64,000 nt of DNA, taken from Azolla caroliniana (taxonomy: Eukaryota; Plantae; Polypodiophyta). The notes under the pieces are model-generated. The model did no database searches, was not told where the DNA came from, and worked only from the letters and a program-made list of their open reading frames with translations. The first letter of the stretch is position 1; every line of letters begins with the position of its first letter. Location: assembly GCA_043228905.1 (NCBI GenBank), contig JBHGNT010000020.1:1426001-1490000 (forward strand), in the 5' to 3' direction. The position numbers and the translations under genes were made by a program. Positions 7,612-52,993 of the stretch are shown here, piece after piece.

Positions 7612-7672
7612 GCAAGACTCAAACCAATGACCTTATGTTATATGGGTCGAGCTCTCGACCATTACACTATCT
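7612..7672 (-). ncRNA. tRNA-like Pol III promoter cassette in the Gypsy B LTR, antisense to the element
   Basis: The minus strand reads TAGTGTAATGG (A box)...AAGGTCATT GGTTTGAGTC (B box with C>T decay). Confidence 0.55.
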
Positions 7673-7903: not shown

Positions 7904-7953
<50 letters not shown>

Positions 7954-29378: not shown

Positions 29379-32300
29379 TGTGGAGAATTTGTCCTCCTAT
29401 TCACAGTAAGAAGCGTATAGTGAACTGTTGTAGGTCCAATACTTGGACAAACACCTGTCACTCTCAGATTGATAACTTAGATAATATGACGAATCTGAGG
29501 CTCATATTTTATAAACAAAAACTAAACAGAAAGGGCTTTCCAACAAGTATTTAAACATAAGGAATGGCTATATATTCATTAAGATGTGAATCTTACAAAT
29601 GAGCTGATACAAAAGAAATGTGAGAGAAAGACTAACAATGTATCAAAGACAATCTATAAAACTTCTCACTTAGATATGACAATCAAGGTATTCCTCTTGC
29701 TCTCCTCTTTTTTGTATGTATAGAACACGTTTTATACCTATTTTTATACCTTATGTTTTATGCTAGCTACTTACAACTTGACTCACCTATTAGACTCCAC
29801 TTTTGTAGCCACTGATTTTTGTGTCTAATTCTCACCTACCACATATATTTACCCATTATATGCTATTCACTAGAGTCTTTAGATAAATGCTCACCATACA
29901 TCTTTATAAACATAAACAACCATAACTCATGTCAATTTGAGCTTGTAAACATTTATCTCCAACACTCCCCCTCAAGCTCATTTGGGAGTTATCTTGAGCC
30001 ATGTCTTGCATTTAATTCATCACATCCTTGAAACCTTTTAGTTTAAATGCATCCAAGAACTTTGTGAACATGTTTGCAACTTGGTCCTTGGTTTTGATGA
30101 ACTTTATCTCCACATCTTTGCTCAACACCATCTCTCAGACATAATGGTAGTGAACTTCAATATGCCTACTCCATGCATGGAAAGTGGGATTGCTTTCCAA
30201 GTAAATACTTGCCATGTTGTCACCCTATATCGGAATTATTCACACATGCACTTCAAGATCAACCAAAAGCTTTTTAAGCCACATTGCTTCACATGTAGCA
30301 AATATTAATACTCTATATTCAGCCTCCATGGATGAAAGTGCAACAGTAGGTTGTTTCTTCGAGCTCCATGTGATAGGATTGCTTCCAATCATAAATAGAT
30401 AACTTGAGGTTGATCTCCTATCTTCCTTTGAACCTGCCCAATCCGCAGCACTAAAAACTTTGACATGCAATTCTTCATCACACTTATAAAACAAAGCATG
30501 ATTAATTGTATGCTTTATATATCTTAACACTCTCTTAGCTGGAGCTTGCATAAATTGAGAAAGTACACACCAACATAACATAGATCAGGTCTTGTAATGC
30601 TTGCATAGATTAATGATCCTATAATACTTCTGTCCGTTGTTGTATCTTCTAGTATTTCTCCATCACTTGAGCATAGTTTTGTATTTGTGTCAATGAGTGT
30701 CAATGGGTTGAGTGAGTGGTTTGCATTCACTCATTCCAAATCTAAAAACAACATCCAACAAGTGCTTCCTTTGCATCAAGTAGATGCCACTTTTCCCGTA
30801 AACAACCTCAATTCCTAAAAAATATTTCAGCCCTCCTAGATCTGAAAATTTAAACTCTTTTCCAAGCTTTCCTTTTATATCTTTAATCCATGTATCATCA
30901 TTCCATGTTATGATGAAATTATCAACATATATACAGATATATACCTCTTTATTTCCTTTTTTCTTCATATATAATGAGGGATCAACAATGCTTGGGTTGT
31001 ATCCACATTTAGTTAGATACTCTACCAATATTTGGTTCCATGCTCGTGGTGCTTGTTTCAAGCCATAAAATGCCCTTTTTCAATCTGCAAACAAAATCTG
31101 GATAGTTTTCGTCTTCAAATCCAACCGGTTGACTCATGTATACCTCTTCTTTTAGTTCTCCATTTAGAAAGGCATTCTTCATGTCGAGTTGATATAATGG
31201 CCACCTCTTTGAAGCATTGATTGCTATGAAGGTTCTAATTGTCCCCATCTTTGCAACCGGCCTAAAAAATCCATCATAATCTACGCCTTGTGTTTGTTTA
31301 AACCCTTTTGCAACCAACCTAGCTTTGCATCTAGCTATGAACCGTCAACATTTCTCTTCACCTTGAACATCAATTTGTTTGGAATGATTTTCATACCTTC
31401 TTTCTTTGTCACTAGATCCCATTTGTAATTATCGTTGAGAGCTTTGATCTCTTCTTTCATAGCTTGCTTCCATTCCGTTTGTGTACAAGCTTCTTCATAC
31501 GTCTTGGGCTCTTTGTCTTTGACAACCTGCATCATATATGCAAAATGTTTCACCATGAAACTATCATAAGTCAACCTTTGAATTGATACCTTATCCATGA
31601 TGATCTTCTTTCATTGCATTTAGAATGTTTTTTCTTCAAGCTATTCGGGTTTAGCTTAGAAGTGGTCATCTCTTCATTTTCAACTTCACTTGCGTCTATC
31701 TCACTATTTCCAACATCACTTGCTTCGTCATCTATAGGATGACTTTCATGTCTTTCCTTCCATGATGAACGTTCTTCCTTTGATGTAGATGCCTTTGGAT
31801 ATGAAATTTCTGTGCTCGATTGTTGAACTTCACTTTGATTAGTTCAGGTACATAATCATCATAATCTTCTAAGACTTCAAGAACTTTTCCCTTTCCTTTA
31901 TCTTCATACCATGGTCTTCGTTCATCAAAGACCACATCTCGTGAGACCCTTCTTCCTTTTTTATAGGATTATAACACTTATATCCTTTTTGCTCCATCAA
32001 ATAGCCAATGAAAATGCATTTTTCTGATCTTGGTTCCATTTTTGTTCTTACTTCCTGAGGAATGTGAACAAAACAAACACATCAAAAAAAAAATAGGTGT
32101 GTAAGATTAGGTTTGCTACTGGAATATACCTCCTCTAGTGTCAAGTTATGTATTCCTAATGCTGTGCATCTATTCATCAAGTAAACTGCGGTTGTGGTAG
32201 CTTCAACCCAATAGTGTAATGGTACCTTCATCCCGTTCAACATGCATCTTGCAACTTCAATGATTTGCCTATTTTTCCTCTCAGCTACGCTATTTTGTTG

Positions 32301-33530
32301 AGGCGTATATCGACAAGTAAATTGCCTTTTAATCCCATTTTCTTGTAGAAAATCTGAAAACTCATTGGAGAAGTGCTCCCCTCCATCATCAGATCTTAAG
32401 ATTTTGATATGCCTTCCTGTTTCTTTTTCAACTTCATTTTTGAATCTCTTGACTATAGAAAACATATCAGATTTTTGCTTCATACAAAACAACCATACCT
32501 TTCTTGAATGATCATCAATGAAAGTGACAAAAAATCTATTACTAGCCATTGATGACTCTCAGATAGATCCCCATACATTCGTATGTATCAAATCCAAGAC
32601 ATTTGGGGCCACATAATTGCTTCTCTTGAATGGTTTCCTTGTTTGTTTACCTAATTGACAAGCTTCACACAATTCATGTACTCCAATACTATTAATTTTT
32701 GGAAGACCTCTTACCACTTCATGTTTGCTCATGTTCTTTAGCTTTGGAATGTTAATGTGTCCTATCCTGTTGTGCCATAAATCTAGCTACGAGATTTTCT
32801 TGTCCCCAAATTGAATATACATTACTCTTCCATAAGGATTTTGAATGTCCAAGGTGAGCATCCTTCCTTCTCGTTTACCTTGAGCAATGACCATGAAACC
32901 TTCTTTAGGATTCTTTATGAAGCACCCATTCTAATTGATTATGACATGATAACCCTTCTCTACCATTTGTCTTATTGAAATCAAGTTCTTTAGTACTGTA
33001 GGAACATGAAGAATATTTGATAGTACCTTTGCTTTACTTGTGTTTCCAAGCCTTACATCTCCAATGTGTTCAATCGTGTGTTGAGTATCATCACCTATTT
33101 CAACACATCCTTTCCCATTTGGTATCTGTAAATTAGTGAACATACTTCCCTAGCATGACATATGATTACGAAAACCTGAATCAATATACCATTTTCCATC
33201 ATCTTCGTAAGAGCTTCTAAACTCATTGTCACGGACAAGTATAATGGAGCAGAGCGAAGACAAGACCAGAAAACAAGAGAGACGAAAAGAACAAGAACTT
33301 AACTTATAGAATCCATAATTGGTGTTGTTCAGCTTGATTAGAATCAAGGTGCCCATGAGTATTTATACAAGAAGGTAGGGATATGTAAGCCAACTAGATA
33401 TAGAGTATGCATGAGGATGCATGCAATAGAGAATGCATGAGAATGTGTGCAAGCTAGAAATGAGGATGCAGGCAAGCTAGGAACTTCCAATGTTCAATCT
33501 ACACTACATGAAGTTGGCTTTAGTACAAGC

Positions 33531-33600
33531 ATGCATATGTAGCTCAATTGGTAGGGTTGCTCAATAGAGACCATGAGGTCTTGGGTTCAATCCCTACCTT
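33531..33600 (+). ncRNA. tRNA-like Pol III promoter cassette in the Gypsy F LTR (second copy 52261-52330), antisense to the element
   Basis: A box TAGCTCAATTGG at 33540-33551; variable loop GAGGTC; B box GGTTCAATCCC at 33584-33594. There is no acceptor stem. Confidence 0.7.
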
Positions 33601-36006
33601 CCTCCGACATTATCCTCTTTCTAAGGCCGCCTCCTAACACCCACGACCAGTTGATGAAAAGCGTGAATTGCCTTCGGCACATTTTGTAAATGTGTAACTA
33701 GTTCCCATGTGGCCTCAACTACGGTTTCCACCATGGCAAGGAAGTCCACCATGGGGAAACCTTAGTTGAGGCGTGGATACTATTATTGTAGGCAAATTCC
33801 ACTATGGCAAGGAAGTCCACGCAATCGTCTTTTTGGTACCTGATTGTACATCAGAGGTATTGTTCGAGGATTTCGTTGACTCTTTCGGTTTGGCCATCAG
33901 TTTGAGGGTGGTGCACGGTTGACAAGTTCACAGCAATCTCGAATCTCTATAGAAGTCGGCGCTAGAAGTGGGAGATAAATTGAGGACCTCGATCAAAAGT
34001 GACATCCTTAGGGAATCCATGTAATCAGACCACAACGCCAACGTTTTCGTGACCCCAAAGTGTTCGGCAAGAGGATCATCGTGGCAAGTTTGTAGTACTT
34101 GGATGCTACATGTGCTAGCTGGTACGTAAAGGAGGTGATTACAATAGAGTAGCCCATCCTGAGTTGTAAAGTGACTGAGATCCGAGCTTTCTATTTCCTG
34201 GGATGGGTTGTTGAGGCGCACCATGATGTCAGTGGCGAAAGGGCCCGGCGTGGTTGCTTGGGTGATCTCGTTGAGCAAGGAATCATCATGCAACATATAG
34301 ATTGCAAACATGTGGAGTTGATCGAGCCACAATAAACAATGCGATTGGTGAGGGTGGTTTTTTGCATGTAGTAAAGACAACTACTGTATGCGTCGTCACC
34401 TGGGTGTAGTTCAAAGTCGGGTCGCCGAGAGAGAGCATCTGCTTTCCCATGTAGCGAAGGCCGAGATGATAGCTGCAAGCTCCTTGTCGTAGACTGGATA
34501 ATTGATTTCCGGGGCTGTAAACTTCCTAGAGTAGAAGGCGACCGGATGCAGGGTGCCATCATTGTAGGGCTGAGACAAGACTGCACCTATGGCAAAGTCG
34601 GAGGCGTCGGTTTCAACCTAGAAAGGGCGGATGGGGTCAAGGTGGACTAACACGGGGGCGGAGAGAAAAGCTGCTTTGAGGGCATTAAAAGCATTATGTG
34701 CCGCAGGGGTCCAAAGAAATGGAGTATCTTTCCGGTTAAGTTGGATGAGAGGTTAGACTAGGGCAGAGAACCCGTCCATAAATCGTCTATAAAAATTTGC
34801 AAAACCTTGATACGATTGTACCTCTTTCAGCCAAGTCGGGAGAGGCCAATCAATGATTGCCACTACCTTGCGTTCATCCATTGTGATCCTGGTAGATGAG
34901 ATCACGTAACCCAGGAATTCGACAAAGGTCTGATCGAATTCGCATTTCTCACTTTTGGCGAAGAGCCCATTTTCCCGGAGTTTGGTGAGAACCAACCGGC
35001 ATGGTGTGTGTGCTCCTCCAAGTTGGAAGAAAAAACTAGGATGTCGTCAAGGTAGATGACCATGAAATGATCGAGATACTCTCGAAAAATATCACTCATC
35101 ATGTGTTGGAAGATGGTTGGAGCATTGGTAAGGCCGAATGGCATCACTTTGTACTCAAAATGTCCATAACGCGTCCAAAAAGCCATTTTCCACTCGTCCC
35201 CAAGCTTGATGCGCACCAAATTGTAGGCACCCCCCAAATGTCGATTTTGGAGAAGATATGCCCAGTTCGGAGTCGATTGAGGAGCATTGGAATTAAGGGT
35301 AGGGGGTAACGATTACGCACCATAACTTTGTTGAGACCCCGATAATCCAGACATAAGCGTAAGGAGTCGTCCTTCTTTTTGACAAATAAGATTGGTGCCC
35401 CGACCAGTGATTTGGAGGGTTGAATGAAGAAGCCCTTCGCGAGATTCTCAGCCAGATATGTGTGGAGAGCCTCAAGTTCGGGTTCAGATAACCCATAGAT
35501 AGGACCGAATGGGGGATGCTTGCTGTTAACTCTTCGGGCCGGACAATGGCCTAACACAGGGTGTCTACGGGAGACACTTCACCAAAGGGTGTTAACCGGA
35601 TTAGACTTCAATGCTTAATCCGACTTAATTAAGTTACTTATTAGGATCATCTTTCATAACACGCGTAAGATATAACAATTAAGACAGAACGGCAATTAAC
35701 ACAGAGAGATAACAACGCTTAAGCTTTCATTAATTAACCACTAACTATTACATTGTATCCGGGCCTTTAAATAGGTTTCCGGTCTGTATTACAAAACTGT
35801 GCCATCCGCACCTGTTCGGGATCGGTCCGGATCCGGAACGGCATACCGATTCCGGTCCGTCCGTCCACACTCATAGCTTAATTACAACCACATTCCTACT
35901 ACTTAATTAGCTCTCTGTTTCCCACTCTGGACTCCTTTGCCGGTCGGTAACACATGGCACGCCCGTGGGACAGTACCTTGTACGTCGAATCCACAACCGA
36001 CCCTTG

Positions 36007-38100
36007 CTATTCTTCGTCCAAAATGTCCAGAATGCTTTGTTCGAGAGGCTCCAATGGTTCATCTGGAAGTGGTTGTTGTTGTTGTTGTTGTTCTGTTGCA
36101 GTCTGCTGCGGCGGGTCCGTTGGTGGTTGCTGCGGCTGCTCCTCCGATTGTGGCTCTGACACCGGTGTCTCCATCGTTGCTCCCTGCGTCGTAGTGGTCT
36201 TTGGTTGACTGGTTCCCGGCTGGCCCTCAGCCGGCGACGGTTCCTCATCACTAAGGTTAACCGTTGCCGCTTCCCGTGCTTTTTCTTCCCGCACCCGGGA
36301 CCGCTCGTAGCTTTCAAACTGGATTTGAGCATCCAGCCTATCATCGTCCAGCTGAGCTACGAGCTGCCTGACCTGCGCCAACTGTTCATCTGCCAGGACT
36401 TGGAAGTCGTCGGCCAGCTCGTCCTGTATGGCGGTGAAGTCCTCGGAAGTCAACGTATAACAGTCATCTCCTTCCTTCCGCCGGTTTGCCACATCCGCCC
36501 GTAGCAACTGGAGTTCCGTCGTGTTTTGTGCCCACTTTGTCCACCATTTTACGGAGCTTTCATCAATCAAGTGTTTTGTCTGATTCAGCCATGCCCGGAG
36601 GATGGACTGAATCCGGCTCGTTCCCAATTGCGATTTGGTTTCCGCCGCTTGCAGTTCCTCCTTCAGTTGTTTGATGATTTTGACGTTGTCCTCCGCCTGC
36701 GCCTTGTAATGCGTCAATTGCCTTTGATATGTGCTTTGTAATTTCTGCAATACTGTTGACGCTCTCTCTTTGTCTTCCTGCTGCTGCCTCTGGAGTTCCA
36801 TCCGGACCTTCTCCGCCTCGTCCAAGAGTCTTGTATTTTCCGCCCATTCGTCGGCGATCGCCGTCGCGGCCCGATCAACTGCCTGCTGGAGCTCGGCCAT
36901 CCGTTCTTTATGCTCCATTTCCAACCGTTTGTAGTCCCGGTGTAGGTGCTCAAAATCATCCGTCTTTTGCTTGAGCCGTGCGTTGATCTGATGATGGGCC
37001 TGGTCCTCGCGGTCCTTCTGCTGGCGGAGCTCTTCCTTTAGCCGTTCCATCTATGTTTCCGCCGTTTTCCGCAGCTTGTCCTTTTCCTGCAGCACTTTGT
37101 CTTTCTCCTCCTTTAGTCGGTTGTACGCTTGATGGCCTTTCCGGAGGCTCTCCTCTGCCCGGCGGAGGTTCTCAGTAGTCTTCTTTAATTCGGCTTCGGC
37201 CGCCGTCTTCAATTCTTGTTCACGGCTCCTTAGCGCTTCTTGTGCGGCAAGTTCCTCTCTCAATTCCGCAAGCTCCTGAGCTTGTGCCACATCTCTCGCC
37301 GGAACGGCTTCCGTTGCCAGGGTCTTATTGCTATGTACAGGTCGTTCTGTTTCTTTATTCTATACACTTACCGGAGTCACCGGTGATTGGATCCGTATTT
37401 TGGCCATCTCTGTCGTGACCTGATCCAAGTCTTTTTCAAGGCACTGGATTCTGGACCGGGCCGTCTCTAGTTGTTCGGTTGTGACGAGCAACCGTTCGCT
37501 GTGCGCTCTTTCTTCCGCCTCAATATACCCCACTGCTCCGGCTATCTGTTCGCCTATCCACCGGAGCCACAGGCTACCGGTGCCTTGTTGTGCTTGCACG
37601 AAGGTTTGACAGATGGGCTCACTTGTAGAGGGGTAGTCCCGCCTGGTTGCGCCGAGTTGCAGTTCCGTTTCTGCCCGTGGACCATCCTGCTGTCCTGGTT
37701 CCCCTTGCGCTTCTTCTTGGCTGACCGAGGGAGGCTGTAGTGACCTTTCCGGCTCTGGTGGGATGGGACTTGCCGGTGTTGCTGGTGGTGCCGGGGCTTT
37801 TGTTTCTGGTGCCATCTGCACCGGTTTCGGTTCCTTCCTTGGCGTGGGAGTCTCAGTATGGGGAGCCGGTGTTCCCTCCGTCTGAGGGTTCGAACGTTTC
37901 CCGGCTGTCTCAACGGTCCTTGCCGACGACCGTCGCTGGAGGTGCTCCGTAGGCTCCTCCTCTATTTCCTCCTCCTGAGCTCCGGCATTGAGTTTTGCCG
38001 CCAAGGGGTCCACTTCTCGATTCACCGGTCGGCGGAGTGTGACCTTTACGGGCCGTGCCGGTGGTTCCTCCTGCGCCTCCGTTGGGCGCTTTCGGCTGCC
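36007..38100 (-). pseudogene. Extra ORF (~700 codons): Pro/Glu-rich segment, long coiled coil, Gln-rich tail; two premature TAG stops
   Basis: ORF pieces 37360-38265, 37051-37290 and 36007-37050 are all in one frame, separated only by TAG codons. Confidence 0.8.
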
Positions 38101-38109
38101 GCTTCCTGC

Positions 38110-39398
38110 TGCTGCCTCCGTAGTGACTCGAAACAGCTCCGCATCCGGAAACTCATCCGGTACTCCGTCCCCCGTCTCTCCGGAATCTAATTGGCTTAAG
38201 TAATCCGCTACGGCATGCTGTATACCGGGTCGGTGGAATATTTCAAACTCGAACTCTTGTAACAATAAGGTTCACCGGGCCAATTTGCCGGTGAGTGACG
38301 CCTTGGACACCAGGTAAAGGAGTGCCGAATGATCTACATGGAAGGAAAACTTCCTTCCCAATAAATAGTGCCGAAACTTTGTCACACTGTAGATCATTCC
38401 TAGAGCTTCCCGTTCCGTAGTAGAGTAGTTCCGTTCTGCTTGGGATAGCTTTCGGCTGGCATAGTACACTGGCCGGTACCACTTTGGTTCCGTAAGCTGC
38501 ATCAGTACGCTTCCGATTGCGATGTCGGAGGCGTCCACGAACACGTGAAATTCTTTACTCCAATCCGGAGGTTGTACTACCGGTGCCTGCGACAATAGTA
38601 CCTTGAGGGCCTTATATGCCCTATCCTCAGTATCGGTCCACTGGAATGGTGTCCGATGTACGACGGCATGCAACGGTGTAGCCAGGTCGGCCAAGTATCG
38701 GAGCATCCGGCTGTGCCACCGGATCTGGCCTAAGAACCGGCTTAATGCCTTTGCCGTTACCGGTGCCGGTGCTTCTAATATGGCTTTCACTTTGTCCGAG
38801 TCGACTACAATACCTTCCTGGCTCACAATATGTCCTAATAAGGTTCCACTGAACACGCCAAATACACACTTTGCCGGATTCAAGCTTAGCTGGTACGCTC
38901 TACACTTTTCTAGACAAAGACGGAGGTGCTGAAAATGGTCCTCCTCCCGGCTATAGACGGCGAAATCGTCAAGGAAAACCTGCATAAAAGCTGGTATATA
39001 TTCACCAAAGATTTCCATGATGATTCGTTGAAATGTTGCCGGTGCCGTTTTGAGACCGAACATCATCACCACGGCCACAAACACCCCCCATTCGGTGAAG
39101 AATGCCGTTTTCTCTTGGTCGTCGGGGTGCATCCGGATCTGATTATACCCGCTGAATACGTCTAGGAAGCTATAGACCTCATGGCCGGTGACGGCATCCA
39201 ACACTCCATCTGTGAACGGAAGTGGAAACGCATCCGTTACCGTAGCCGCATTGAGTTTCTGGTAGTCCACGCAAACTCGAATTTTGCCGTTCTTCTTCGG
39301 TACGACTATGATCGGGCTCAGCCATGTCGCTTTCTTTACCGGATGGATAAAGCCAACTCTTAGCAGTTTGTCGATTTCTTCCTTGACCTTGGCGGCGT
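38110..39398 (-). pseudogene. RT-RNase H of the tRNA-Arg Gypsy (upstream gag-PR-RT start at 46688-49803)
   Basis: Removing the nested element restores RRYRMNPKYAAKVKEEIDKLL. Motifs VCVDYQKLN, MFGLKTAPATFQ and YSTTEREAL. Confidence 0.92.
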
Positions 39399-40253
39399 TG
39401 TCGAGATGTTTCGAAAGTGCGTGTGGAAACAAGGCGGGACCGCGGGGGTCTCGAACCAAAGAGCAAGCAAGGGAGGGGAAAGAGAGAGAACCGGCTACGC
39501 AGGACCGGGGATACACAGGGATACGGCCCTTCAGCACGGAGAACGCGAACAGACACTGACACAGACAGATGCGAATGACTAAATATGTATATTAACAAAA
39601 ATGGCTAGCACGACTACAACCCTCGATGGGGGCACAAGTTGGTTACAGCCGAACAGGCCGGCGAACAGATGCCGATGCCTGTTCGCTTCGACGCACAAAG
39701 GGCAGCAGGTCGGAGGTGCTGCCGGAAGCACTCGGGCTTTCCTCGAAACAACGCGAGCCTCCTTGGAACCCTGCACAGAAAGCTATGGAGCTCAAGAAGG
39801 AAGGAAACAGAGAGAGAAGCGTCCAGAAACAGTCCGACAGCACTTCGTCCTCTCTGCGCGAGATCCTTGCAACAGCTCTTTCCTGCTCCTTATATAGGCC
39901 GACGAGCAGGCCGTCCTGTCAGCTTTATTCCCTATCCCTTTTGGACAGGGATCCGCTTCGTTCTTCACGCATCCGCGTAGTTACACCGCCGACTCGTACA
40001 GTTCGCGCGCGCGACCGAAAGGACTGTTCGCGCGGTCTTTGTCTCCGCTCGTGTTAGGGCCCGTTCCTGCCGATTATCCTCCTAATTCGCTCCTATGTAC
40101 AACTTGGAGCGTGCGCGCGTGAGGAACCGGTTCCCACGCCTCGGTGCGCCGATTCCGCTTACGGACGGTTTTCTTCACGACATCCGCCCCCACCTAACCG
40201 CGCATCCTCCGGTATGCGCCAAGAGAGTTGGGACGGAGAAAACCGGCCCGTCT

Positions 40254-43200
40254 TCATTCCTCGCCCGTCGGTTCTTCCTCGTTTTCGGATCGTTCGTCAC
40301 TGCTGACTAGGAGAGCCGGATCTGGCTCGTCGTCGTGTCGCTTCTTGAACGCTTTGATCCGCTTCCCTGCAACCGGTACCGCCATTCTCGTGCCGTCGAG
40401 TTCCGCCAGGTGATATGTTCCGTTGTCATTGGCGCTCCGTACCACGTAAGGCCCGAACCACCTTCGTGCGATCTTCCGTGTAGCTCGGTGCTGGTTGTTG
40501 AGGCTGCTGTCGTAGACGAGCACCCAGTCACCCTCTTCGATTTTCTTCGGTCGGAGCCGGTGCGTTCGGTCGAACCTGGCTTTGTTCTTTGTCCTCGCCA
40601 CCCGGAGCTTCTCCGCAGCCAGTTCCACGTCCTCCGGTCTCCGCTCGAGCTGTCGTATACGCGCGGCCAACAACTCCTCCCGGCTCATCTCGTCCCTCCA
40701 GTCGACCGTTGCCCACGAGGAGATCGTCCGCTCCATCGGCATGATCGGCTTCTGGCCGAACATGAGCTCCGTCGGCATGTACCCGGTTACCGAACTGTGC
40801 GTGGTTCGGTCTGCCCACAAAGCATAAGGTAGCAGTCGCGGCCAGTTACCGACTCGGCCTCCGCATGCCCGAACCAGCGCCTTGACGATCGGTCCGTGTC
40901 CGCGCTCCACCTTGCCATTCGCCTCCGGATTGTACGCAGTGGTGAGCGAGAGCTTGACTCCCAGCCGGTCGAACAGCTCCGCGGCTTCTTCGGCGTCCAA
41001 CTCCCCTCGGTCAGCCACGATCTTCCCGACGCACCCGTACCGGCATATCACGTCCTCGATTAGGAACCGACATACGGCCGTGGTCGTTTTGTTCGGAAGG
41101 GCCCGGCCTTCCACCTGGTTCGTCAGATCCTCCCGCCCTAGGACCAGGTACCGCATCTGTCCTACCCCCATTGGCATCGTCACCAGATCTACCATCCATT
41201 TGAAGTGGATGGTCGGAGGGTACGTAGGGTGAAGCTCGTCTCGATGTCGGACTATGGAGTGCATCTGACAGCTCTCGCAAGTTGTCACGAATCGATGCAC
41301 GTCCTGGTACTGCCCCGACCACCAATACTTCCCCTTCAGTTTCTCAAACGTGGCCCATGTTCCACAGTGCCCAGCCCAAGGGCTGTCGTGGTAGGCCGCT
41401 AGCAGCTCCTCCCGATCTTTCTTCATTGCCACCACCCGGAGTGGGACGCCGTTCCTCTTCTTCGGGTGCTTCCACAAGTATCCATCCCGGAGAAAGAACC
41501 GGTACGCTTTCTTCCGGATCCGGTTGGCCTCGTCCTTCGTCCATGACGCATCGGGCGTCATTGTCTTCAAAAACCCACCGATCTGCAGCCACTCCCTGTC
41601 GTACTTGCTCGCGTCGAAGTCGTTAAGCGCCGGAGTGCTTGTTCCGTCCGTTGTTACATACGCAGCCTCGAAGAAGTCCACGCCGACCTCTTCGTCCTCC
41701 GAAACCATGCCGCCCTCGTCATCGAATCTCGCCCTTGAAAGCATGTCGGCCATGGCGTTGTCTTTCCCGGAAATGTGTCGTATTTCCGGGTCCAGGGACT
41801 TGATGTACGCTATCCACTTGAGCATTGCCAGGTCCGGCGTCGCGCATCCAGAAACCATGCCGAGAATCGGCATGCAATCCGTCTCTATGATTACCTCTGT
41901 CCCGATCAGATAGTCCTTGTCGGCCTTCACCGCCGAAACGATACCCCAGAGTTCGCGTTTAACCTGGGCGTATCCTCGCTGCCGCTCACTGAGGACCTTT
42001 GCGCCGAATCGGATCGGAAACCGATTGCCGTCCTCGTCTTCTTGGTTGACGACCCACCCGATTCCGGTCGGACTCGTGTCAACCGTTATGTACACTGGGG
42101 TGCCCTTCCTGTAGACGGCCTTTCGGAGCGCCGGTGCTGCCGAAAGAGCCTCCTTCAGCTTCCGGACCGACTCCGTGTGCTTGTCTAGCCATTCGAATCT
42201 TCGCCCTTTCTTCAATAATCCGTACAACGGCTCCGCGACGTGCGCGTAATGCGGGATCCATATGTGGTAGAAGGCGCATGCTCCCAAGAATCTTCGTACT
42301 TCCGTGACCGAGCTGCAATCAGGCTTCATCGCGGAGATGGCTTCTACCTTTGCCGGAGACGGTTTCCGGCCATATGGTCCACATAAATGTCCGACCACCA
42401 TGATTTCCGACTGCCCGAAGGCTGACTTCTCCCCCGAGAAGGTGAGCCTCGCATCCTCTAGCCTTTGCAGCACCTTCTCGCAGTCGTCGATGTGCGTCAT
42501 CACGAATCGCCGACATCCGTCCGGCCCGATCGTCTCGTCCTTCTCTTCTACCGGGCATCCCTTGATCGGGATGTTGTCTAGAAACGGCATGGTGATGTCC
42601 GGGATGCAGTCCCTCAGCACCTTGTTCATTGCATTCACCATGTGGGCCACCGAGTTGGTCCCTCCTTGCGGCAGCGTACACATCCGCACTAGGCCGAGGG
42701 GAGTTCGCATCGTCGTAATGTCTCTGCTCTCCACGGCGAGCTGGAACTGGTCGTACCCTGAGTATAGATCACCGACCGAGTAAATCGACCTTCCGGCGAA
42801 GGCCTCCGCGAACTCGTCTATGGTCGGTCCGATCCCTGCGTTCCGAATGGTCACTCTGTTGACCGGCTGCAGGTCCTGAATGAAGCGCAACGATCCGTTT
42901 TTCTTTGGTACGGTAAACCATCGGTTTGAATATGGGGCGCTCGACGGCTCGAGAATGCCCATATCAACTTTCTGCTTCAACAGCTCCATCAACTTCGGGA
43001 TGTGAGCTCTCGGAACCGGAATTGGCTTGAGATTCCACGGTACATGCGGTACCGTGAATATCACCATTGGCTCTACGATCGTCGGGTCTACGCACCCGAT
43101 TTCCTCCGGTGAGAATGCGAAGGCTTTCCCGTGCCTCCCGAGCATTCTCCGAAACCGGTCTTCCTCCACCGGCAGTAGGAACCCGCCCCCACCGATCTTC

Positions 43201-43742
43201 AGCTCGCGGAGCGTCTCGTTGGTGAAGGTGTGTCCTATGCAGGCCGGATCTCGTAAGCTGGGGTCCGATGCAACCCCTTTGATTCGGGATTCGCTGCCCT
43301 CCGGTAAGGGCGCCGCGACTGGCCTCACCTTCCGGTCCACAGTCTTGTACTTGGTGCTAACTCGGGCCGTCCGTTCCGACTCGAGCCCTCGACCGAAGTC
43401 CGCGATAACTTCGTACATTTCTTCGGAACATACCGGTATCGTCCGGTCTTCGTTAAGGTCTTCTTCGACTACCTTCCCCAGCATTCCCAAGGTGTCGTCG
43501 AAGGAGACCGCCTCCACGGCTCCGTCGATTTCTTCGTCAGGGCCGAGAACTCCGCACGCCCGAAGTCTCCCCTCCGTCTTTGTTTTCTCTCGGCCGGCGA
43601 TGCCGACCATCGTACATGCTCCGCTGTCGGAGAAGCAAAATTTCCTACCTATTGTACACGGTTTTATCGTACAGATGTGGGGTTTTCCCGGAGCATCCGG
43701 ACTGTCGCGGCCCCACGCCTTGGCAGTCCTCTCTAAAAATCC
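40254..43742 (-). CDS. RT-RNH-INT in the -1 frame relative to gag-PR; catalytic motif mutated to FLDN
   Basis: The frame is open from the slippery site at 43742 through the MVGIAG of ORF 40254-43610. Motifs LPQGGTNSV, PFLDNIPIKG, VDTSPTGIG, H..H..C..C, WMVDLV, VADRGE, NGKVERGH, RRWFGPY. Confidence 0.92.
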   Translation of the reverse strand, partial: GFLERTAKAWGRDSPDAPGKPHICTIKPCTIGRKFCFSDSGACTMVGIAGREKTKTEGRLRACGVLGPDEEIDGAVEAVSFDDTLGMLGKVVEEDLNEDRTIPVCSEEMYEVIADFGRGLESERTARVSTKYKTVDRKVRPVAAPLPEGSESRIKGVASDPSLRDPACIGHTFTNETLRELKIGGGGFLLPVEEDRFRRMLGRHGKAFAFSPEEIGCVDPTIVEPMVIFTVPHVPWNLKPIPVPRAHIPKLMELLKQKVDMGILEPSSAPYSNRWFTVPKKNGSLRFIQDLQPVNRVTIRNAGIGPTIDEFAEAFAGRSIYSVGDLYSGYDQFQLAVESRDITTMRTPLGLVRMCTLPQGGTNSVAHMVNAMNKVLRDCIPDITMPFLDNIPIKGCPVEEKDETIGPDGCRRFVMTHIDDCEKVLQRLEDARLTFSGEKSAFGQSEIMVVGHLCGPYGRKPSPAKVEAISAMKPDCSSVTEVRRFLGACAFYHIWIPHYAHVAEPLYGLLKKGRRFEWLDKHTESVRKLKEALSAAPALRKAVYRKGTPVYITVDTSPTGIGWVVNQEDEDGNRFPIRFGAKVLSERQRGYAQVKRELWGIVSAVKADKDYLIGTEVIIETDCMPILGMVSGCATPDLAMLKWIAYIKSLDPEIRHISGKDNAMADMLSRARFDDEGGMVSEDEEVGVDFFEAAYVTTDGTSTPALNDFDASKYDREWLQIGGFLKTMTPDASWTKDEANRIRKKAYRFFLRDGYLWKHPKKRNGVPLRVVAMKKDREELLAAYHDSPWAGHCGTWATFEKLKGKYWWSGQYQDVHRFVTTCESCQMHSIVRHRDELHPTYPPTIHFKWMVDLVTMPMGVGQMRYLVLGREDLTNQVEGRALPNKTTTAVCRFLIEDVICRYGCVGKIVADRGELDAEEAAELFDRLGVKLSLTTAYNPEANGKVERGHGPIVKALVRACGGRVGNWPRLLPYALWADRTTHSSVTGYMPTELMFGQKPIMPMERTISSWATVDWRDEMSREELLAARIRQLERRPEDVELAAEKLRVARTKNKARFDRTHRLRPKKIEEGDWVLVYDSSLNNQHRATRKIARRWFGPYVVRSANDNGTYHLAELDGTRMAVPVAGKRIKAFKKRHDDEPDPALLVSSDERSENEEEPTGEE

Positions 43743-45886
43743 TCTCGGTTTTCGGAACCGAGGGAGTCGCGGTTACGTTCGTGGTTCGGTCGTACCGTCA
43801 GAAACTGGACCGAATGGCGCCCGTCTTGGCTTTTGACCCTCGCGTAGGCCGAACCATTGTCCAGCACCTTGGTCTCCATTCGTGCCGCCGTGATGTACGG
43901 CTCTCCTAGTATGACCGGATGCGAAGACGTCTCCTGCACGAAGAAGTGCTGGTCAATCTTGACGTCGCCGATCTTGACTCGCACATTCGGACAGGCCCCG
44001 TGCAGTTCCTTGGTGGCGCGCGTAGCTGCCCTTATTTTCCACACGTGCTTGGTGTTGATCGGCCATTTGCCCTTCTTATAGAAGTCCATGGACATCAAAT
44101 TGATCTCCGATCTGTGGTCCACCAAAGCTATCACCGGTTCCTGGACATCGCCGATCTTCACCGGGGTTTCCGTGGTCGCTCGGGCCCAGTGTGGTCTCGA
44201 ATAGTGGCTTTCCGCCCACTCGTCTCCCAGCGCCATGTCGTCTAGGTGCGTCGTCCGCACTTCCACCGGTCTTTCCGGTTCTGTCTCCGTTGACAGCCTC
44301 TTCCGTTTCACCAAGTCCACGATGGAGTCGTGGAACTCCTTCTTGGCGATTCCTAGCACCTCTCGTAACGACAGCTCCACCTTGCTGTCGAGGATCCGTT
44401 CCTCCAGGACCTTTCGTAAGTCCGTGGTCCTTTCTATCTCCGTCCCCAGACGGTACCCGCCCTTCTGGGGTTTATCTTGCGTACCGGCCCCGCCGGCTTC
44501 GTCCCGTCGTGGCCTGGACCGGGTCTCGTATCGTTGTGAGGGCCCGGTCGTCCCGGGTTTCCCCACCCGCTTCTCTTCTACCAGAGCCTCGTAGTTCTAG
44601 CAAGCGGCTTCCACGAAGCCCGTCTTTTCCTCGACCGGGTCGCTCCACCCGGTCATCTCCCGCACCCGTTTCTCCGCACGGTCCGATTCCTCCCTTTTAA
44701 GCCTTGCACCGGCAAGGCCTTCCAGCATCGTCGGCCAGAATCCGGCTTTGCTTTCCCTTCGGGCCTCGCCGCCCCCGACTCGAATGCCGGCCGACGCCGA
44801 GTAGTGAACGGTTTCCGCGTGTCGGGCCGCCGCCTCTTCCATCAACCTTTTCATACCACCTCGCCCGTCGTTTCGGCTCAGGGCCCTTCGGGTGTCGTTG
44901 GCATGCACCCGTCCTTCCCACAGGTACACCACCCTGTTCCTCAGCGCCTCCGCGAAGTCGCCGCAGTCCTTCCGAATGTGGCCGACTTCATCGCACCACA
45001 TGCACCTGTTTCCTGCCGCCGGCCGTCGGTCACGAGCCGGTTCGCCACCTTCCCTTCGGGCTTGCGCGATTTGGAGGTCCTTTATCGCCCTCGTCAATTC
45101 CTCCAGCGCCGCTCCTCCGGTTGAGCCTCTGACTACGCCGGTCGAAGCCGAACCGGTTTCCAACCACTCTCGGGTCTCTTCCTTTCGCACCTGCGGCGCT
45201 GGTTCGAGCTTCCCTGCTGCGACCGAGCCCGACCCGGTTGCCCCGTTATCCGCCCATTCTCGCCGTTTGTCGAAACGGCCGCAAACTTTCTTGACAGCCG
45301 CCCAGTCGGTAGTGAGCCCGTCTTCGGTTTCCAGTAAGAGGCCCACTTGCTCCCGATCCCGCTCGTCGACCGACTTGACAAACAGCAAGACCCGGCTCGT
45401 GTCCAGGATGGTTCGGTCGAGCGCCGAAAGGCGCGCAAAGTTTTCCTCGAACTCCCGGAGGAGTGCCGACGCGTTTCTTCCCTTCCCCGGGGACTCCACC
45501 CATTCCATGAACCTTCGCTTCGAAAGCCGGAGCGCGTCGTCCAGCCCGTATTTCTCTAGGAGCCGACCTTCGAACTCCTCCCAGGTACGGCTCTCCGCCC
45601 GCACCTCGAGCACCTCCGCATGGATGCTCGGCATCGCCACTCGGGGAAATCCGGCAAGACGCCTTTCTTCCGGAATGTCCCGCATCAGCATCTCTGCACC
45701 GTAGGACGCCAAATACTTCGTGGCATCCTTCCCATCGAACCGGCCGATCGTGCCGACGACCGCCTCAATAGCTCTATCGAGGACACCGGTGCCCTCGCGC
45801 GCGTTTACAATCCGATCCACGGCCGAAGCCATGGCCTCTGCAAGATCCGACCCCCTCATCTTCTGCTCTTCTGCCGCCTCTTTCAT
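43733..45886 (-). CDS. Gag-protease of the tRNA-Trp Gypsy (one in-frame TAG at 44597)
   Basis: ATG at 45886 within the PBS; knuckle CMWCDEVGHIRKDC; PR ALVDHRSEIN (G>R relative to DxG); both ORF pieces are in the same frame. Confidence 0.88.
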
Positions 45887-48800
45887 GTCGGGTTCACCAA
45901 AGATGTCGAGATGTTTCGAAAGTGCGTGTGGAAACAAGGCGGGACCGCGGGGGTCTCGAACCAAAGAGCAAGCAAGGGAGGGGAAAGAGAGAGAACCGGC
46001 TACGCAGGACCGGGGATACACAGGGACACGGCCCTTCAGCACGGAGAACGCGAACAGACACCGACACAGACAGATGCGAATGACTAAATATGTATATTAA
46101 CAAAAATGGCTAGCACGACTACAACCCTCGATGGGGGCACAAGTTGGTTACAGCCGAACAGGCCGGCGAACAGATGTCGATGCCTGTTCGCTTCGACGCA
46201 TAAAGGGCAGCAGGTCGGAGGTGCTGCCGGAAGCACTCGGGCTTTCCTCGAAACAGCGCGAGCCTCCTTGGAACCCTGCACAGAAAGCTATGGAGCTCAA
46301 GAAGGAAGGAAACAGAGAGAGAAGCGTCCAGAAACAGTCCGACAGCACTTCGTCCTCTCTGCGCGAGATCCCTGCAACAACTCTTTCCTGCTCCTTATAT
46401 AGGCTGACGAGCAGGCCGTCCTGTCAGCTTTATTCCCTGTCCCTTTTGGACAGGGATCCGCTTCGTTCTTCACGCATCCGCGTAGTTACGCCGCCGACTC
46501 GTACAGTTCGCGCGCGCGACCGAAAGGACTGTTCGCGCGGTCTTTGTCTCCGCTTGTGTTAGGGCCCGTTCCTGCCGATTATCCTCCTAATTCGCTCCTA
46601 TGTACAACTTGGAGCGTGCGCGCGTGAGGAACCGGTTCCCACGCCTCGGTGCGCCGATTCCGCTTACGGACGGTTTTCTTCACGACAGCGTATTTGGGAT
46701 TCATCCGGTACCGTCTTTGTGCCACTGGTTTTGCGTCCTTGCTCAAGTGCACTTGATGCTGGTATAACTGAGGGTCGAGTCCTCGCATGTCTTCGTATGA
46801 CCAGGCGAATACGTCGTGAAATTCCGTGAGAAGTGTTATCATCGCCGTTTTGTCTCCGGACTTCTTCTCCTTGGCGATGTGCACCGGTTTTGCTTCGTCC
46901 GTGGTGCCTAAATTCACCTCTTCCAGTTGCGATGCTTTTACGCGCTGTGAAACAGCCATTTCCCGTTCCAACGCTTCCTGCGCTTGCCGTAACTCCCGGA
47001 TTGCGTCTTTATCCGGTTCTGCTTCCGCCTCTTCCGGTTTGGGTAAGTATGGTGCTACGGCTTCGACAATGTCAATTTCGAAGAGGGGTATGATCTTCGG
47101 GTTTTCCTATAGGTATTCAGCTTCTTCTTCGTCCGCTAACCCTTCTAGCATGTTGACGCATTCCGCATACAACGGTGTACATTCCTTGCCAGTGCTCGTC
47201 CTTGGCTGTGTTGGTACCCGTACCTTGGCTTTTCCTCGCCGGAAGGTAATTATATTTTTCCGCCAATTCTGTTTGATATGTGCCGTTTTCAACCATGGCC
47301 GCCCCAGCAATAGCGGGTATGTGCCTTGTGCCTGTAATTGTAGCACTACGGCCGAGATGTGAAATGTATGACCGCCGACGGTGACTTCTAATTTCCGTAT
47401 TAATCCTGTCGGCCGCACTGAGCTTGTATCGGCCATCCGCAACTAGAACGGACACGACTCCCACTCGTGGATTCCTAGGTCATCACACGTCCGGAGGCTT
47501 ATTACATTTACCCCAGAGCCTCCGTCTATAACTGTGCCGGGGAGTTCTTTCCCTTTTACAATGGCAGTGATTACCGGACTGCTGGTGTCTACCACTGTTG
47601 GTCCCTCCTCCGGATTCGAGAAGAGTACCGGTGCCCATGATGGTTCTCCTGCCGTCATGGCCGTCTTCAGTCCTTCCGTGAATCTTGGCACGAGTTGTAG
47701 GAGTCTTCCTAGTGGTAACGTAATCTGGCATTCTTGCAACGCCTGCCATGTCTCGTTCTCGGAGTGACTACCGCCGGCAAGCCCTGCGGTGTTCTCCTTT
47801 TGCTGCTGTAAGTCTGTGACATTCTGCTCGTTTGCTTTCTTTACCCATTCCGTTGCTTGTTTCCAGATGGTCTCCTGTGTCTCCCATTCTTTGGCCATGC
47901 CCTTCGACCTTGTGGTCACCTGCTGCAGGTCTGCCACCTCAAGGACTACCATATTTACCGCCGATCGTTTTTCATAGCTCTTCACCGGGCATTGGTTACT
48001 ATAATGGCCTTCCTGTCGGCAGTAGTAGCAGTAGGCTTTCCGGGTATTGCTAGATTCGGCATTGTCTGTTGTACCCGGGGCAGGTGCTACGGTACGCGCG
48101 GGGTTTTGTACCGGTTGGCTACTTGGAGCTCCTTGTTCCAGATCCCGGGGGTAGCCGCCTTTTTTAAAATGCCGTTTTTTGTTATAGCTCTTCTTATTAC
48201 GGTACTCTTGACGGGGTTGCCCGTTATATCTGCCGTATTCCTCCCGTTGCTGACGATACCCGGGGGAGTGCTCTCGGTCGTACTGTTCGTATCGTCTATT
48301 GTAATCCTGGTACCGATCATGCCGGTCATAGTTATCTCGCCGATCACCGTACTGGACATCATTTTCCCGTCAATCGCCATACCGGACATCATTTTCCCGT
48401 TGCTCGCCATACTGGACATCCTGTGCCGGTCGGTCACGGTCCATTCGCCGCCAACGTTTGTCTTCTTCATCCCGGCTGTTGCGTGGCTCAATTTGTCGAA
48501 CGGGCGGTGCTTGCCGATTCAACAGATTATACTCACACCTATCCGTTGTATGGCTCCTGGATTGACAAATTACACATTGCGTCCTCATAGTGCATTCTAG
48601 AGCCGAGTGTCCGGAATTCAAGCAGGTTGTGCACTGTATTGCTTGCCGAAACCGGAGGTCTTCATCGGACGGTAATGCCCGTTGAAGTGCTCCCAGTGTG
48701 AGCCAGGAGCTTGTCTTTTCCGTCTCTCTCACCCGGTCAATGACCTGGTCGATGGTACTTGTGCGGAAATCGATTACCGTGCAAACCGTGCGTAGGGGTT

Positions 48801-51800
48801 CCCGGAGCGCGTTTAGGAATATCGTCCGTAATTCCTCCTCCGGGGGTGCACGGGCAAGCTGACTATGCATCCGTTGAAACCGGATGAAAAATTGGGGAAT
48901 GCTCTCCCCTGCCTCTTGCCGGATGGTATAAAATAAGCCTACCATTACGGTCTGGTCCACCTCCTTTTGAAAAAAATGCATGAATTTAGCTTTTAAATCT
49001 GCAAAGGTGTTGATGGTAGACGGGTCCTGCGTCTGGCGCCATCTTGCTGCTAGTCCCTCCAATGTGACGCCAAATTCCGCTATCTTAGAGCGTTCTTCTT
49101 CTTCTGGGGTCAATCGTTGGGACACATGGTTGGGTTCCCATGTTTGTTCAAAGGCGTGCACATGAGCTTCCGCGTCCGGATCATCTCTATACTTGGAGTA
49201 CTGGAACGACATGACGTCGTCCGGTATCGGTGCGCGGGCTGGTAGTGTTGGTGCTCGTTCCGGAATTTTCTCCGGTGTCAGTAGTCTTTCCCGATTTGAT
49301 TCCGGGGTCGGTTGTTTCTCTTCCTTTGGTGACGGAGGCCTCTCCTCTTCGACTTCCGGTGTCGGAGGTCGTTCTTCCTCAACTGGTTCCGGGGATTCCA
49401 GCGTTAGCACTTCCGGTTTCGGTTCCGGTGTCGGTAAGGTATCCGATCCTTCGTCCTCCGGTCCGCCCATGGTTTCGTTGCTGCTACGGTAGTTCGTGTG
49501 CACGTTGTATTCCCCTTCGGAGTCCGATTCATATGCTGAAAAGGCCTCTGCTTCGCCTTCTCCGTTTGCCAATGCGTGGAGAAGGGATTTGGTTTCCCGG
49601 AGGCTGCTTAGGCTGCTGCCGTCGTCCGGGTGCGATATTTGCTGTAACCAGAGGGAGTCCTCCGCTACTCTCCGGATTACGTTGGAAAACGAGCGATCCG
49701 CTCTAATTTCCTGCGCCGCTTGCTGGAAAGCCTCGCGTCTCCTTTGCCTTTCGGCAAGGCGTCGAGTTCGATCTGTAACCAGGTCGTGCGTTGATCTAGA
49801 CATCCATCCGTGCCGTCGTTCGCTGCAAAAACAGGAATCGTGGTCGCCAAAAACTGTGTTAACTCTTCGGGCCGGACAATGGCCTAACACAGGGTGTCTA
49901 CGGGAGACACTTCACCAAAGGGTGTTAACCGGATTAGACTTCAACGCTTAATCCGACTTAATTAAGTTACTTATTAGGATTGTGTTTCATAACACGCGTA
50001 AGATATAACAATTAAGACAGAACGGCAATTAACACACAGAGATAACAACGCTTAAGCTTTCATTAATTAACCGCTAACTATTACATTGTATTCGGGCCTT
50101 TAAATAGGTTTCCAGTTTGTATTACAAAACGGTGCCATCCGCACCTGTTCGGGATCGGTCCGGATCCGGAACGGCATACCAATTCCGGTCCGTCCATCCA
50201 CACTCATAGCTTAATTACAACCACATTCCTACTACTTAATTAGCTCTCCATTTCCCACTCTAGACTCCTTTGCCGGCCGGTAACACTTGCCAGCATGGAG
50301 TTTGATTGGGCAATCTTAGGGGCGATGAGCCGGTAACTGATCAACATTCCACTTTTTGAAGATGTTGGAAAACTTGCTATATCGAACGTGTAAATTGTTG
50401 ACAGGAATGGTGACGCCCCCCAACACAATGGCCAGTGTAGCGACCAAACCGGACTCGACCGCAACGGAATCAAGAGAGTGTCGTGACCTAGTAGGAATTG
50501 GCCTTACTGGAAAAGTGATGGAGCGGTTACAGCAATCCACTATCGGATTGTGTCTCCAACCAAGATAGCCCCAACACAATCGGATGTCGGGGGGCTGCGA
50601 TGAGGTAGAATGCGAGTTCCTTCTGATGTGCGCCGACTTGAAGTACTAATGGGATAGTGGATTTGGTAACCGCCTTCGAAGAGAGAACCCGACCGTCGAT
50701 CACCTCAACGGATATGGGTTGTGATGTGCGGACGGTGGGGATATTATGTGCGCGGACAAACGATTTATCGATAAGGTAAGTAGATGCTCTAGAGTCGACC
50801 ATGGCATGAGAATGTATTGAAGTCGAACCAAAACAAAGACTTACTTGCAAAAAGAACCCTCCTAATGGCGGAACGAATTTGTAGGAACATGGAGAAAGTA
50901 AGTAACGGGAAGCGTCTAGCAGCATGGCTCCCACTGCAGCCAAACTTGGTCATTTTCCTGTTGTCGAGGAACCTCCACAAGACATGCACGATGGAACTGG
51001 TGTCGTAGGCCCCGCACTGGGAGTGGCTGATGATATGGTCGGGGTTGCCACAATAGAGACATAGTTCATTGTCCTGGCGATGTTGGCGTTGGGATTCAGT
51101 TAGTGGTTGGAACCGAGCGTGGTCGATCTCCATTGGGGTATGGAAAATGAGTATCATAGGGTGATGGTAAGGTTGGCGTGGGAGACAAGTACGGACTAGC
51201 GATTGATGTGTTTTGGGAAGAAGCATGAGACCCGCGAGCACCCTGTTCTTCTTGACGAAGTTCGAAGAGACGATTATCACACTGGACAGGTTGGGAGATT
51301 ACTTGAGACAACAATGTGGGCTCCGGGAAGTTTAAGAGAAGAGTCTTGACGTTGTTTCGGAGACCGTGATGGAAATGGTTGCATAGGGCTTGGTCATCCC
51401 AACTGACATCGCAGGCAATCTGATGGAACTCTGAGGCGTAGACCGAGGCTAGATGTGAGCCTTGTTGGAAAGAATAAAGCTTTGTGAGTGTCGTTCATCG
51501 CCGGTCTGTCTCACCAAATGTCGCTTCGAGCTCCTCGATGAAAGCGGTGAAGTTTTCTAAGAGAGGGGATAAGGTCTCGATCAAGGGTGCAAACCACGCT
51601 TGCGTCGGCCCGAAGAGAAGTGTGCTAACAAGCCCAACCCGAGAAAAGTCGCTAGCATACCGTTGGGGCTGTAACTGAATGATAAGCCGAATTTGGTTGA
51701 TGAAGTCGTGAAGATATGCCCTTGTGCCGTTGAATTTGTCCGGAGGCTGATGGTTGGTTCGAGGACATATGGATGGGAAGAGGCCATGGTCAGGCTAGGT

Positions 51801-52993
51801 GCCGACAGTGGTTGTGACTCGACGGGTGGTGGATTTCTTGAAGTTCCGAATTGCAACTCTCATAATGATTCCCGAAGGATTTCATTCTCTAGCTGAAGTT
51901 GTTGCAAGGCTTCTATGACTTGGTTTAGGTTGTCGACGGAGCCGAACATGGTAGCAAGAAGAGGGTGAAGGTGAACAAACTATCACAGACAAGTATAATA
52001 GAGCAGAGCGAAGACAAGACTAGAAAACAAGAGAGAGGAAAAGAACAAGAACTTAACTTATAGAATCTGTAACTAGTGGTGTTCACCTTGATTAGAATCA
52101 AGGTGCCCCTGAGTATTTATACAAGAAGGTAGGGCTATGTAAGCCAGCTAGAAATAGAGTATGCATGAGAATGTGTGCAAGCTAGAAATGAGGATACATG
52201 CAAGCTAGGAACTTCCAATGTTCAATCTATACTACATGAAGTTAGATTTAGTATAAGGATGCATATGTAGCTCAATTGGTAGGGTTGCCCAATAGAGACC
52301 ATGAGGTCTTGCGTTCAATCCCTACCTTCCTCCATGACATATGTCTATGACACTCATGACTTATTGCAAGTAATGTATCATTACTTCCTTCGCTTGAGGT
52401 ACTTGCATAATTTCTTTGACTTCCTCCATTTGTTCTTCCATTTTTCAGCCAACAATCATTAGCATAATCTCTACTTTACCACAATGATAACATGTTATAC
52501 CTTTGTAGGAGTTGTAGAAACCTCGATCTCTTCCTCTAAATTTTCCTCGACCTCTCCCTTGTGTGTTGTCATTTGATCCATCCTTGTTTTCCTCCAAATT
52601 AATTTGATTGTAGTTGAAGTTGTTGTGACCTCTTCCTTTTCCTCTTGAGCCTCCTCTTGAAATCCTTCCTTTACCTAGACCTGCATACAACACCCGGTTG
52701 TAGCCATCCTTCCCTTTGAAAGCACCAAAGCTAAGCTCTTCTATCACAAGATGAGGATTAGTTTATCAAACTTTGGATATTCATCTTTCAAATTCATGGA
52801 AGTTATAGAGGGCTTCCACCTTTCATCTTCTCTCAGTCCATTGAGAGTACAACACATAAGATCTTCATCCTCAACTATTGTACTAATAGAAGCTAAAGCA
52901 TCCCGTAGCTCCTTGATGTTCAATGTATATTCATCTATTGATTGACTCGAACTATTTTTAATTGTGTTTAACTCATTTTTTAGTAGAAGTTTC

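Follow-up and report, generated by a model that had tools for sequence, protein, structure and literature searches.

An antisense tRNA-type A/B-box cassette at the U3 edge of Tcn1-like chromovirus LTRs: a candidate outward-facing site for the Pol III machinery

What would a tRNA-type promoter do at the outer edge of the LTRs of a protein-coding retrotransposon, on the strand opposite to the element? This question is raised by element F, a decayed Ty3/gypsy chromovirus recognized by its LTRs, target-site duplication and domain remnants, which occupies 33227..52352 on the minus strand of the window (the whole 64-kb stretch of DNA analysed, whose positions are used as coordinates throughout). Both LTRs carry a tRNA-type A box, variable loop and B box on the plus strand, at 33540-33594 and 52268-52322, antisense to the element and at tRNA spacing. 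This arrangement had been noticed in a first-pass annotation of the locus and is confirmed here.

The cassette and the element that carries it

The invariant and semi-invariant positions of tRNA, 24 in all, were used for scoring, and both cassettes match 23 of them without a gap when numbered from T8 (33540 or 52268). In the tRNA register, the A box (positions 8-21) of the 3' LTR copy lies at 33540..33553, and its variable-loop motif (44-48) and B box (53-61) lie at 33576..33593; the corresponding parts of the 5' LTR copy are at 52268..52281 and 52304..52321, all on the plus strand. A strict A+B pattern is found at two sites in the 64 kb, namely the two LTRs of F, where 100 simulations with an order-3 Markov model predict 0.02-0.05 per 64 kb; a loose pattern occurs at four places, with 1.5 predicted. 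The cassette is a promoter-like relic of a tRNA rather than a tRNA gene. Its D stem pairs, with wobbles, while only 3 of 7 acceptor pairs and 0-1 of 5 anticodon pairs are formed, so that no cloverleaf results. The tRNA search proposed in the first-pass annotation was carried out with ARAGORN and Rfam, neither of which calls a tRNA in the F cassettes: ARAGORN found no tRNA gene there and, with relaxed thresholds, returned dozens to hundreds of noise calls without a usable signal, and Rfam gave no tRNA match at E<=10 on 33100-33900. Together with the unpaired acceptor and anticodon stems, these searches rule out a functional tRNA gene.

F has ends of the TG...CA type and is flanked by a 5-bp target-site duplication, CTCAT, at 33222-33226 and 52353-52357. 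The 5' LTR (51981..52352, minus strand) has a U3 edge of the family type, and the 3' LTR (33227..33609, minus strand) lacks about 15 nt of it; the pair differs at 25 of 357 aligned bases. Contigs break off at the position of 52352 in three runs (25, 31 and 24 contigs), and the majority letters beyond this break resemble a polypurine tract (PPT), whereas loose contig ends near 52249-52255 are few. Since the 3' LTR is short of about 15 nt at its edge, the distance from the B box to the edge in the F family is about 30 nt; the earlier value of about 15 nt holds for the 3' LTR of F and not for the 5' LTR. The element's own internal sequence of about 3.6 kb contains broken gag, protease, RT and RNase H; its integrase is shortened, only the end of its chromodomain is left, and stops and frameshifts are numerous. 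The PPT (33610..33625) and the C-terminal chromodomain remnant (33648..33722; Pfam Chromo, E 0.008, below the curated cut-off) are both on the minus strand. A long hairpin at 33692-33785, in the deleted integrase tail of F, is apparently a short duplicated and inverted segment, and its miRNA matches are at chance level only. Two LTR elements are nested inside F, and a copia-type LTR pair (29379-29964, 58862-59453) in turn surrounds F together with another copia, whose frame of 1402 aa is open (52994-58368), making a deep nest over 29379-59453. The named matches listed for the neighbouring copia include relatives from plants with about 65% identity.

The first-pass annotation held that the cassette is no primer remnant because the family appears to self-prime, and the anatomy of F bears this out. 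A Pol II TATA box in the 5' LTR (52115..52121, minus strand) lies about 140 nt from the start of the cassette and points in the opposite direction. The predicted 5' end of the element RNA (52080..52089, minus strand) would act as the self-primer, and the primer-binding site complementary to it is at 51968..51977 on the same strand; these 10 nt close behind the 5' LTR are complementary to a sequence that lies 32 nt past the TATA box, and the self-priming hairpin has a z of -3.2. From this pairing the F family is predicted to self-prime. Among related loci (L numbers), pairings of 9-12 nt are predicted in L002, L003, L005, L018, L019 and L027, and one of 10 out of 11 nt was found by eye in L021. 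The pairing is thus present in cassette families (F, L018, L019 and, by eye, L021) and also in families without the full cassette (L002, L003 and L027), which indicates that the cassette is separate from priming. It was unreadable in L001, L004, L008, L016, L017, L024, L037, L065 and L067 because of contig ends or solo or rearranged LTRs, or because no match was found.

The closest relative of F among the matches listed, P0001 (85% identity), has RT, RNase H, integrase and Chromo domains, and in P0001 and its relatives the group I chromodomain shows, by eye, an aromatic cage of Y, W and Y. This part of the chromodomain is deleted in the window copy. Self-priming and the aromatic-cage chromodomain of the close relatives make F fit the Tcn1 clade, which, in the available text of Neumann et al., is self-priming and among plants is found in mosses and club mosses alone (PMC6317226). 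With the plant relatives of the neighbouring copia, this points to a land plant as host, probably one without seeds. The claim that the cassette resides in a protein-coding, self-priming, Tcn1-like chromovirus is supported. The nearest named relatives are mostly fungal, with no named moss or club-moss reference among the matches listed, and a scan of a viral contig collection with P0001 found no relative. The F family is abundant, 801 bases of it being matched by 648-1064 contigs per run in four runs with four organism labels; run X14, only guessed to be RNA, gave 3 contigs with less than 90% identity to the family.

Recurrence of the cassette among related families

Relatives were sought with an alignment of the integrase tail and chromodomain from 11 relatives as the query, in a scan that covered 7 of the 64 parts of a metagenome collection (best 80 of 574 loci confirmed). 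The PPT and the LTR start were readable in 25 of the 80 loci, which were grouped by eye and by tree into 16 families. L006, L020, L023 and L025, which are rearranged, interrupted or cut, were left out, as were 51 distant loci (42-52% identity) without a credible LTR start, in which a profile scan found no match at 20 bits. GTTCRA is present in antisense orientation within the first 55 nt of the LTR in 10 of the 16 families, where the remainder of these LTRs gives a background of 0.074 per 55 nt; in sense orientation it is present at the LTR edge in none of the 16. When an A-box core was sought 33-39 nt out from the B box, TGGT with G18 35-36 nt before G53 was found in all ten cassette families (background 0.013). 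The distance from the B box to the LTR edge is 15-49 nt among these ten. Two other families are partial (L065 and L002) and four lack the cassette; it is dispensable, as six of the 16 do without the full form, two of them sitting inside the wider clade around F.

In a quick maximum likelihood tree (72 rows, 329 columns), the cassette families fall into two starred, well-supported groups, clades I and II, separated by families without the cassette. On this tree the cassette families do not make up a single clade: its starred branches force at least three changes, which would correspond to one gain with losses or to two gains. Pol III promoters were possibly captured twice, independently. The A box has two bases before GG in clade I and mostly one in clade II, a hint that the cassettes of the two clades may have come from separate donors. 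Since there are only two clades, the ten cassette families are not independent cases. As to the concern of the first-pass annotation that the segment might be a SINE inserted in only one sublineage, the segment is not confined to a single sublineage: 10 of the 16 families, in two well-supported clades, carry it.

Between families, positions 44-48 have a mean pairwise identity of 0.81, and the segment between the boxes (anticodon arm) has 0.28-0.32, with 0.35 in the upstream and 0.31 in the downstream flank; the values outside the motifs are close to those of random sequence. Across clades, the identity is 0.80 at 44-48 versus 0.29-0.33 for other segments. B boxes vary mainly at the consensus-free positions 57 (A/G) and 59. 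Agreement with the published SINE consensus is limited to 6-8 of 8 positions for the A boxes and to 6-8 of 9 for the B boxes. Cross-clade profile scans of whole loci were meant to reduce circularity. With a profile trained on clade II, the best match in the whole locus falls at the LTR edge for all eight clade I loci (weakly in L065) and for none of nine loci without the full cassette; with one trained on clade I, it falls there for five of six clade II loci (in the sixth, L018, the edge match ranks second) and for none of five loci that lack the full cassette. In three further clusters, the read-through protein tails would allow for an antisense B box immediately behind the PPT; 13 of the 24 tails listed are flagged, but many come from the same clusters and the evidence is weak.

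Another example is found in the window itself. A second chromovirus, on the plus strand, has an LTR at 7600-7990 that shares 92% identity with L021, a locus of clade II, and an antisense cassette at its U3 edge (7616..7669, minus strand) with one B-box base changed. The integrase end of this element is deleted, and no partner LTR was found within the window. A lone B-box match with a variable-loop motif and without an A box (21 bits) lies at 11030-11060 on the minus strand.

Could these boxes be passengers, the heads of tRNA-derived SINEs caught once or twice at an LTR edge and now decaying? Within family F (five LTRs), the boxes vary at 3 of 23 positions versus 33 of 192 elsewhere in U3 (P 0.77), so that the excess box conservation looked for in the first-pass annotation is not seen in this sample, which has little power. 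This comparison does not discriminate, as inserted copies decay neutrally anyway. Copies with broken boxes occur in L005, L012 and at 7624 in the window; L005 and L012 share consensus-breaking changes at positions 10 and 53, and their LTRs are 98.4% identical (6 differences in 385), so they may represent one insertion. A depth-weighted variant table, which mixes families, has variants at box and non-box positions alike. Three runs also have contigs (14, 20 and 7) in which a different 5' flank precedes the A-box half, and in run X8 the summed depth rises about eightfold over that half; these other contexts may belong to a free SINE or to further LTR families, for example L001, where acceptor-like pairing is kept. 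The six families without a full cassette also suit the passenger reading. On the other hand, neutral decay cannot hold the boxes at 0.8-1.0 identity and their spacing at 35-36 nt when the 18-19 nt between them are at 0.3, and neutral captures are not expected to be antisense in ten of ten families, all less than 50 nt from the edge. We therefore regard passengers as quite unlikely. No tail is present between the B box and the LTR edge.

Some of the surveyed loci have peculiarities of their own. The LTR of L065 begins with a perfect 8-bp hairpin (L065:629-651) that has a worn B box as its loop, with no A box at tRNA spacing. L018 has a separate A/B-box unit away from the LTR (L018:975-1040, minus strand), possibly a SINE head. 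In L005, L012, L002, L003, L018 and L019, a chromodomain is followed without interruption by a PPT, a single LTR, a primer site and gag, representing either tandem elements that share an LTR or collapsed assemblies.

A promoter-like site that faces outward

Plant tRNA genes have an AT-rich TFIIIB tract upstream (PMC13578239), and a matching tract accompanies the cassette. In the 5' LTR of F it lies in U3 at 52221..52260 (plus strand, 75% A+T) and is a candidate TFIIIB site. The 40 nt upstream of the cassette have 72-93% A+T in ten of ten families, which exceeds that of deeper U3 in nine of nine measurable cases, and similar offsets in eight loci without the full cassette have 42-65%, the comparison being post hoc. 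A CAA motif is present in one of the ten families. With respect to type 2 Pol III genes, tRNA-spaced A and B boxes and the upstream AT tract are thus present, and a nearby poly(T) terminator is absent. The first T4 beyond the 3' LTR cassette of F is at 33682..33685 on the plus strand, as the first-pass annotation had claimed, although this position varies among families: across 12 loci it occurs 6-129 nt beyond the B box, except in two where the stretch examined contains none. In five cassettes the fold has a z of -3.1 to +0.2 and the structures differ. These differing folds and a T stem with 0-4 of 5 Watson-Crick pairs rule out a conserved RNA structure.

Because terminator position, T stem and fold are not common to the families, an RNA product seems unimportant. 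This bears on a reading in which the cassette works as a Pol III gene, whose short antisense transcript, spanning U3, PPT and chromodomain region, would tune the element's own silencing or reverse transcription. Complete A and B boxes and the AT tract speak for such a gene, termination at the first T4 would give the 3' LTR copy of F a transcript about 150 nt long, and foamy viruses do make Pol III RNAs from U3 (PMC3993851). However, the scatter or absence of T4 and the variable folds and T stem argue against it, and the 5' LTR copy would read into any insertion flank. On balance it is doubtful, and the short antisense RNA across the PPT that the first-pass annotation had considered is weakened. 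Given the lack of a conserved terminator or stem, an outward site for TFIIIC and TFIIIB is likelier than a defined antisense RNA.

The antisense orientation has another consequence, namely that the 3' U3 of the genomic RNA would be complementary to the D loop and to the variable loop and T arm of a host tRNA. Annealing of this kind would aid packaging, dimerisation or strand transfer, like the two-part primer site of Ty3, where U3 base-pairs with both the T arm and the D arm of the primer tRNA (PMC5371799), and Drosophila gypsy has a second, 3' tRNA site (PMC1635307). The conservation of positions 44-48, which lie outside the short B-box consensus, would also suit pairing with a tRNA. Such an RNA-level site is unlikely, since the positions that would specify a tRNA (26-43 and 49-52) are unconserved (identity 0.28-0.46) and cassette families have the self-priming pairing and no tRNA primer site. 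In addition, the upstream AT tract is expected of a promoter; tRNA pairing would predict none.

It is very improbable that the motifs bind some factor other than TFIIIC, such as a Pol II factor or an integrase cofactor, and resemble a tRNA by origin only. The site is close to the integrase attachment end, with the B box 15 nt from the edge in L008 and L065, as such a factor might require. Its distance to the edge nevertheless varies from 15 to 49 nt, and two boxes at tRNA spacing with a variable-loop motif and an AT tract are what makes a type 2 Pol III promoter.

What these comparisons favour is that the boxes kept across distant families likely recruit Pol III machinery and probably keep the element's own promoter open in silent chromatin. 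More specifically, the antisense A/B module at the outer U3 edge would bind TFIIIC and serve as a barrier or opener for that promoter, a proposal to which we give about an even chance. The pattern of boxes, spacing, edge position, orientation and AT tract would then reflect selection on transposing copies. In the 5' LTR, TFIIIC would occupy the outer U3 edge and TFIIIB the AT tract within U3, leaving about 100-200 nt to the Pol II TATA box. If Pol III transcribes at all, it would move outward and leave the Pol II start behind it, and the backward orientation of the cassette would thus be accounted for; antisense transcripts that start in the 3' LTR would be incidental. The shield or outward-firing idea of the first-pass annotation fits the conserved position of the cassette, its orientation and the AT tract upstream of it. 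A group I chromodomain is reported to bind H3K9me (PMC3350952), and an element with an aromatic cage of this H3K9-methylation-binding kind would land in heterochromatin, where a barrier is useful. Barrier function of TFIIIC and TFIIIB has been documented in yeast, and the available text of a review on tRNA-gene barriers contains no plant example (PMC9540200). It is conceivable, if somewhat short of probable, that chromoviruses of non-seed plants, autonomous elements that seek out heterochromatin, took over tRNA-type Pol III promoters and kept them at the LTR edge, facing outward, as a portable insulator.

Relation to known Pol III promoters in LTRs

There are some reports of Pol III promoters in LTRs. 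Cassandra and Ajax TRIMs have an internal Pol III promoter from a small-RNA gene within their LTRs; these boxes are derived from 5S, the elements are non-autonomous, and the Cassandra promoter drives the element RNA (PMC10886601). The suggestion of the first-pass annotation that the cassette is a tRNA counterpart of Cassandra stands in that both place Pol III boxes in LTRs. The parallel is loose, since Cassandra makes its own element RNA from its promoter, whereas the F cassette faces away from the Pol II TATA/R unit. A closer counterpart has been published as Helenus (TRIMp3; Kojima 2024), found in one plant family, Selaginella, in the portion of the paper available (PMC10886601). Its tRNA-derived boxes, like the F cassette, belong to a tRNA-like sequence in both LTRs that is conserved around boxes A and B, mostly without a functional tRNA and without use as a primer. 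Helenus is gene-less, at most 1263 bp long and tRNA-primed, whereas the F family has gag-pol, self-priming and a Pol II TATA/R unit; its boxes are in sense orientation in the three LTR entries compared, whereas those of the F family are antisense at the U3 edge. The Helenus promoter is proposed to make the element RNA, autonomous partners are expected to use Pol II, and tRNA-like parts in other Repbase LTRs are mentioned in passing (PMC10886601).

Foamy virus is also similar in that the U3 of an autonomous LTR element combines Pol III units with a neighbouring Pol II promoter, but it makes a defined hairpin product with a terminator (PMC3993851), whereas neither fold nor terminator is conserved in the cassette families. 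Ty3 shares with these families a genomic-RNA U3 complementary to tRNA D and T arms; it is tRNA-primed and matches one tRNA (PMC5371799), in contrast to the self-priming cassette families, which match generic box positions only. Members of the Tcn1 clade resemble the F family in self-priming, aromatic-cage chromodomain and occurrence in non-seed plants, and the available portions of this literature make no mention of Pol III boxes in LTRs (PMC6317226, PMC2864245, PMC3350952). In the open-access literature searched, including the available parts of PMC3601003, PMC2774510 and PMC13570524, we found no report that Tcn1 LTRs carry a conserved antisense cassette; subscription papers or Repbase may hold one. 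Because of Helenus (PMC10886601), the earlier statement that no description exists holds for the antisense form in protein-coding elements and fails for a tRNA counterpart of Cassandra as such.

The cassette extends the capture of Pol III promoters from gene-less TRIMs to protein-coding elements. H3K9me-reading chromoviruses are proposed to insert into silent chromatin, and a conserved outward site for TFIIIC and TFIIIB would, if real, be a concrete answer to how their expression persists there, one that a few point mutations could test. If the insulator reading is true, each new insertion or solo LTR would plant a TFIIIC boundary in the genome, providing a natural, high-copy plant test of tRNA-gene barriers, which the review documents for yeast and animals (PMC9540200). 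Even as a relic, the cassette would mark two clades and could confuse the annotation of SINEs and tRNAs.

Seven loci (L082-L088) that are related to the chromovirus L081 gave no score at 18 bits. L081 itself, which we take to be a Tekay element of seed plants from its appearance, has two tRNA-type A/B cassettes in its U3, both in sense orientation (L081:4830-4890 and 4996-5056).
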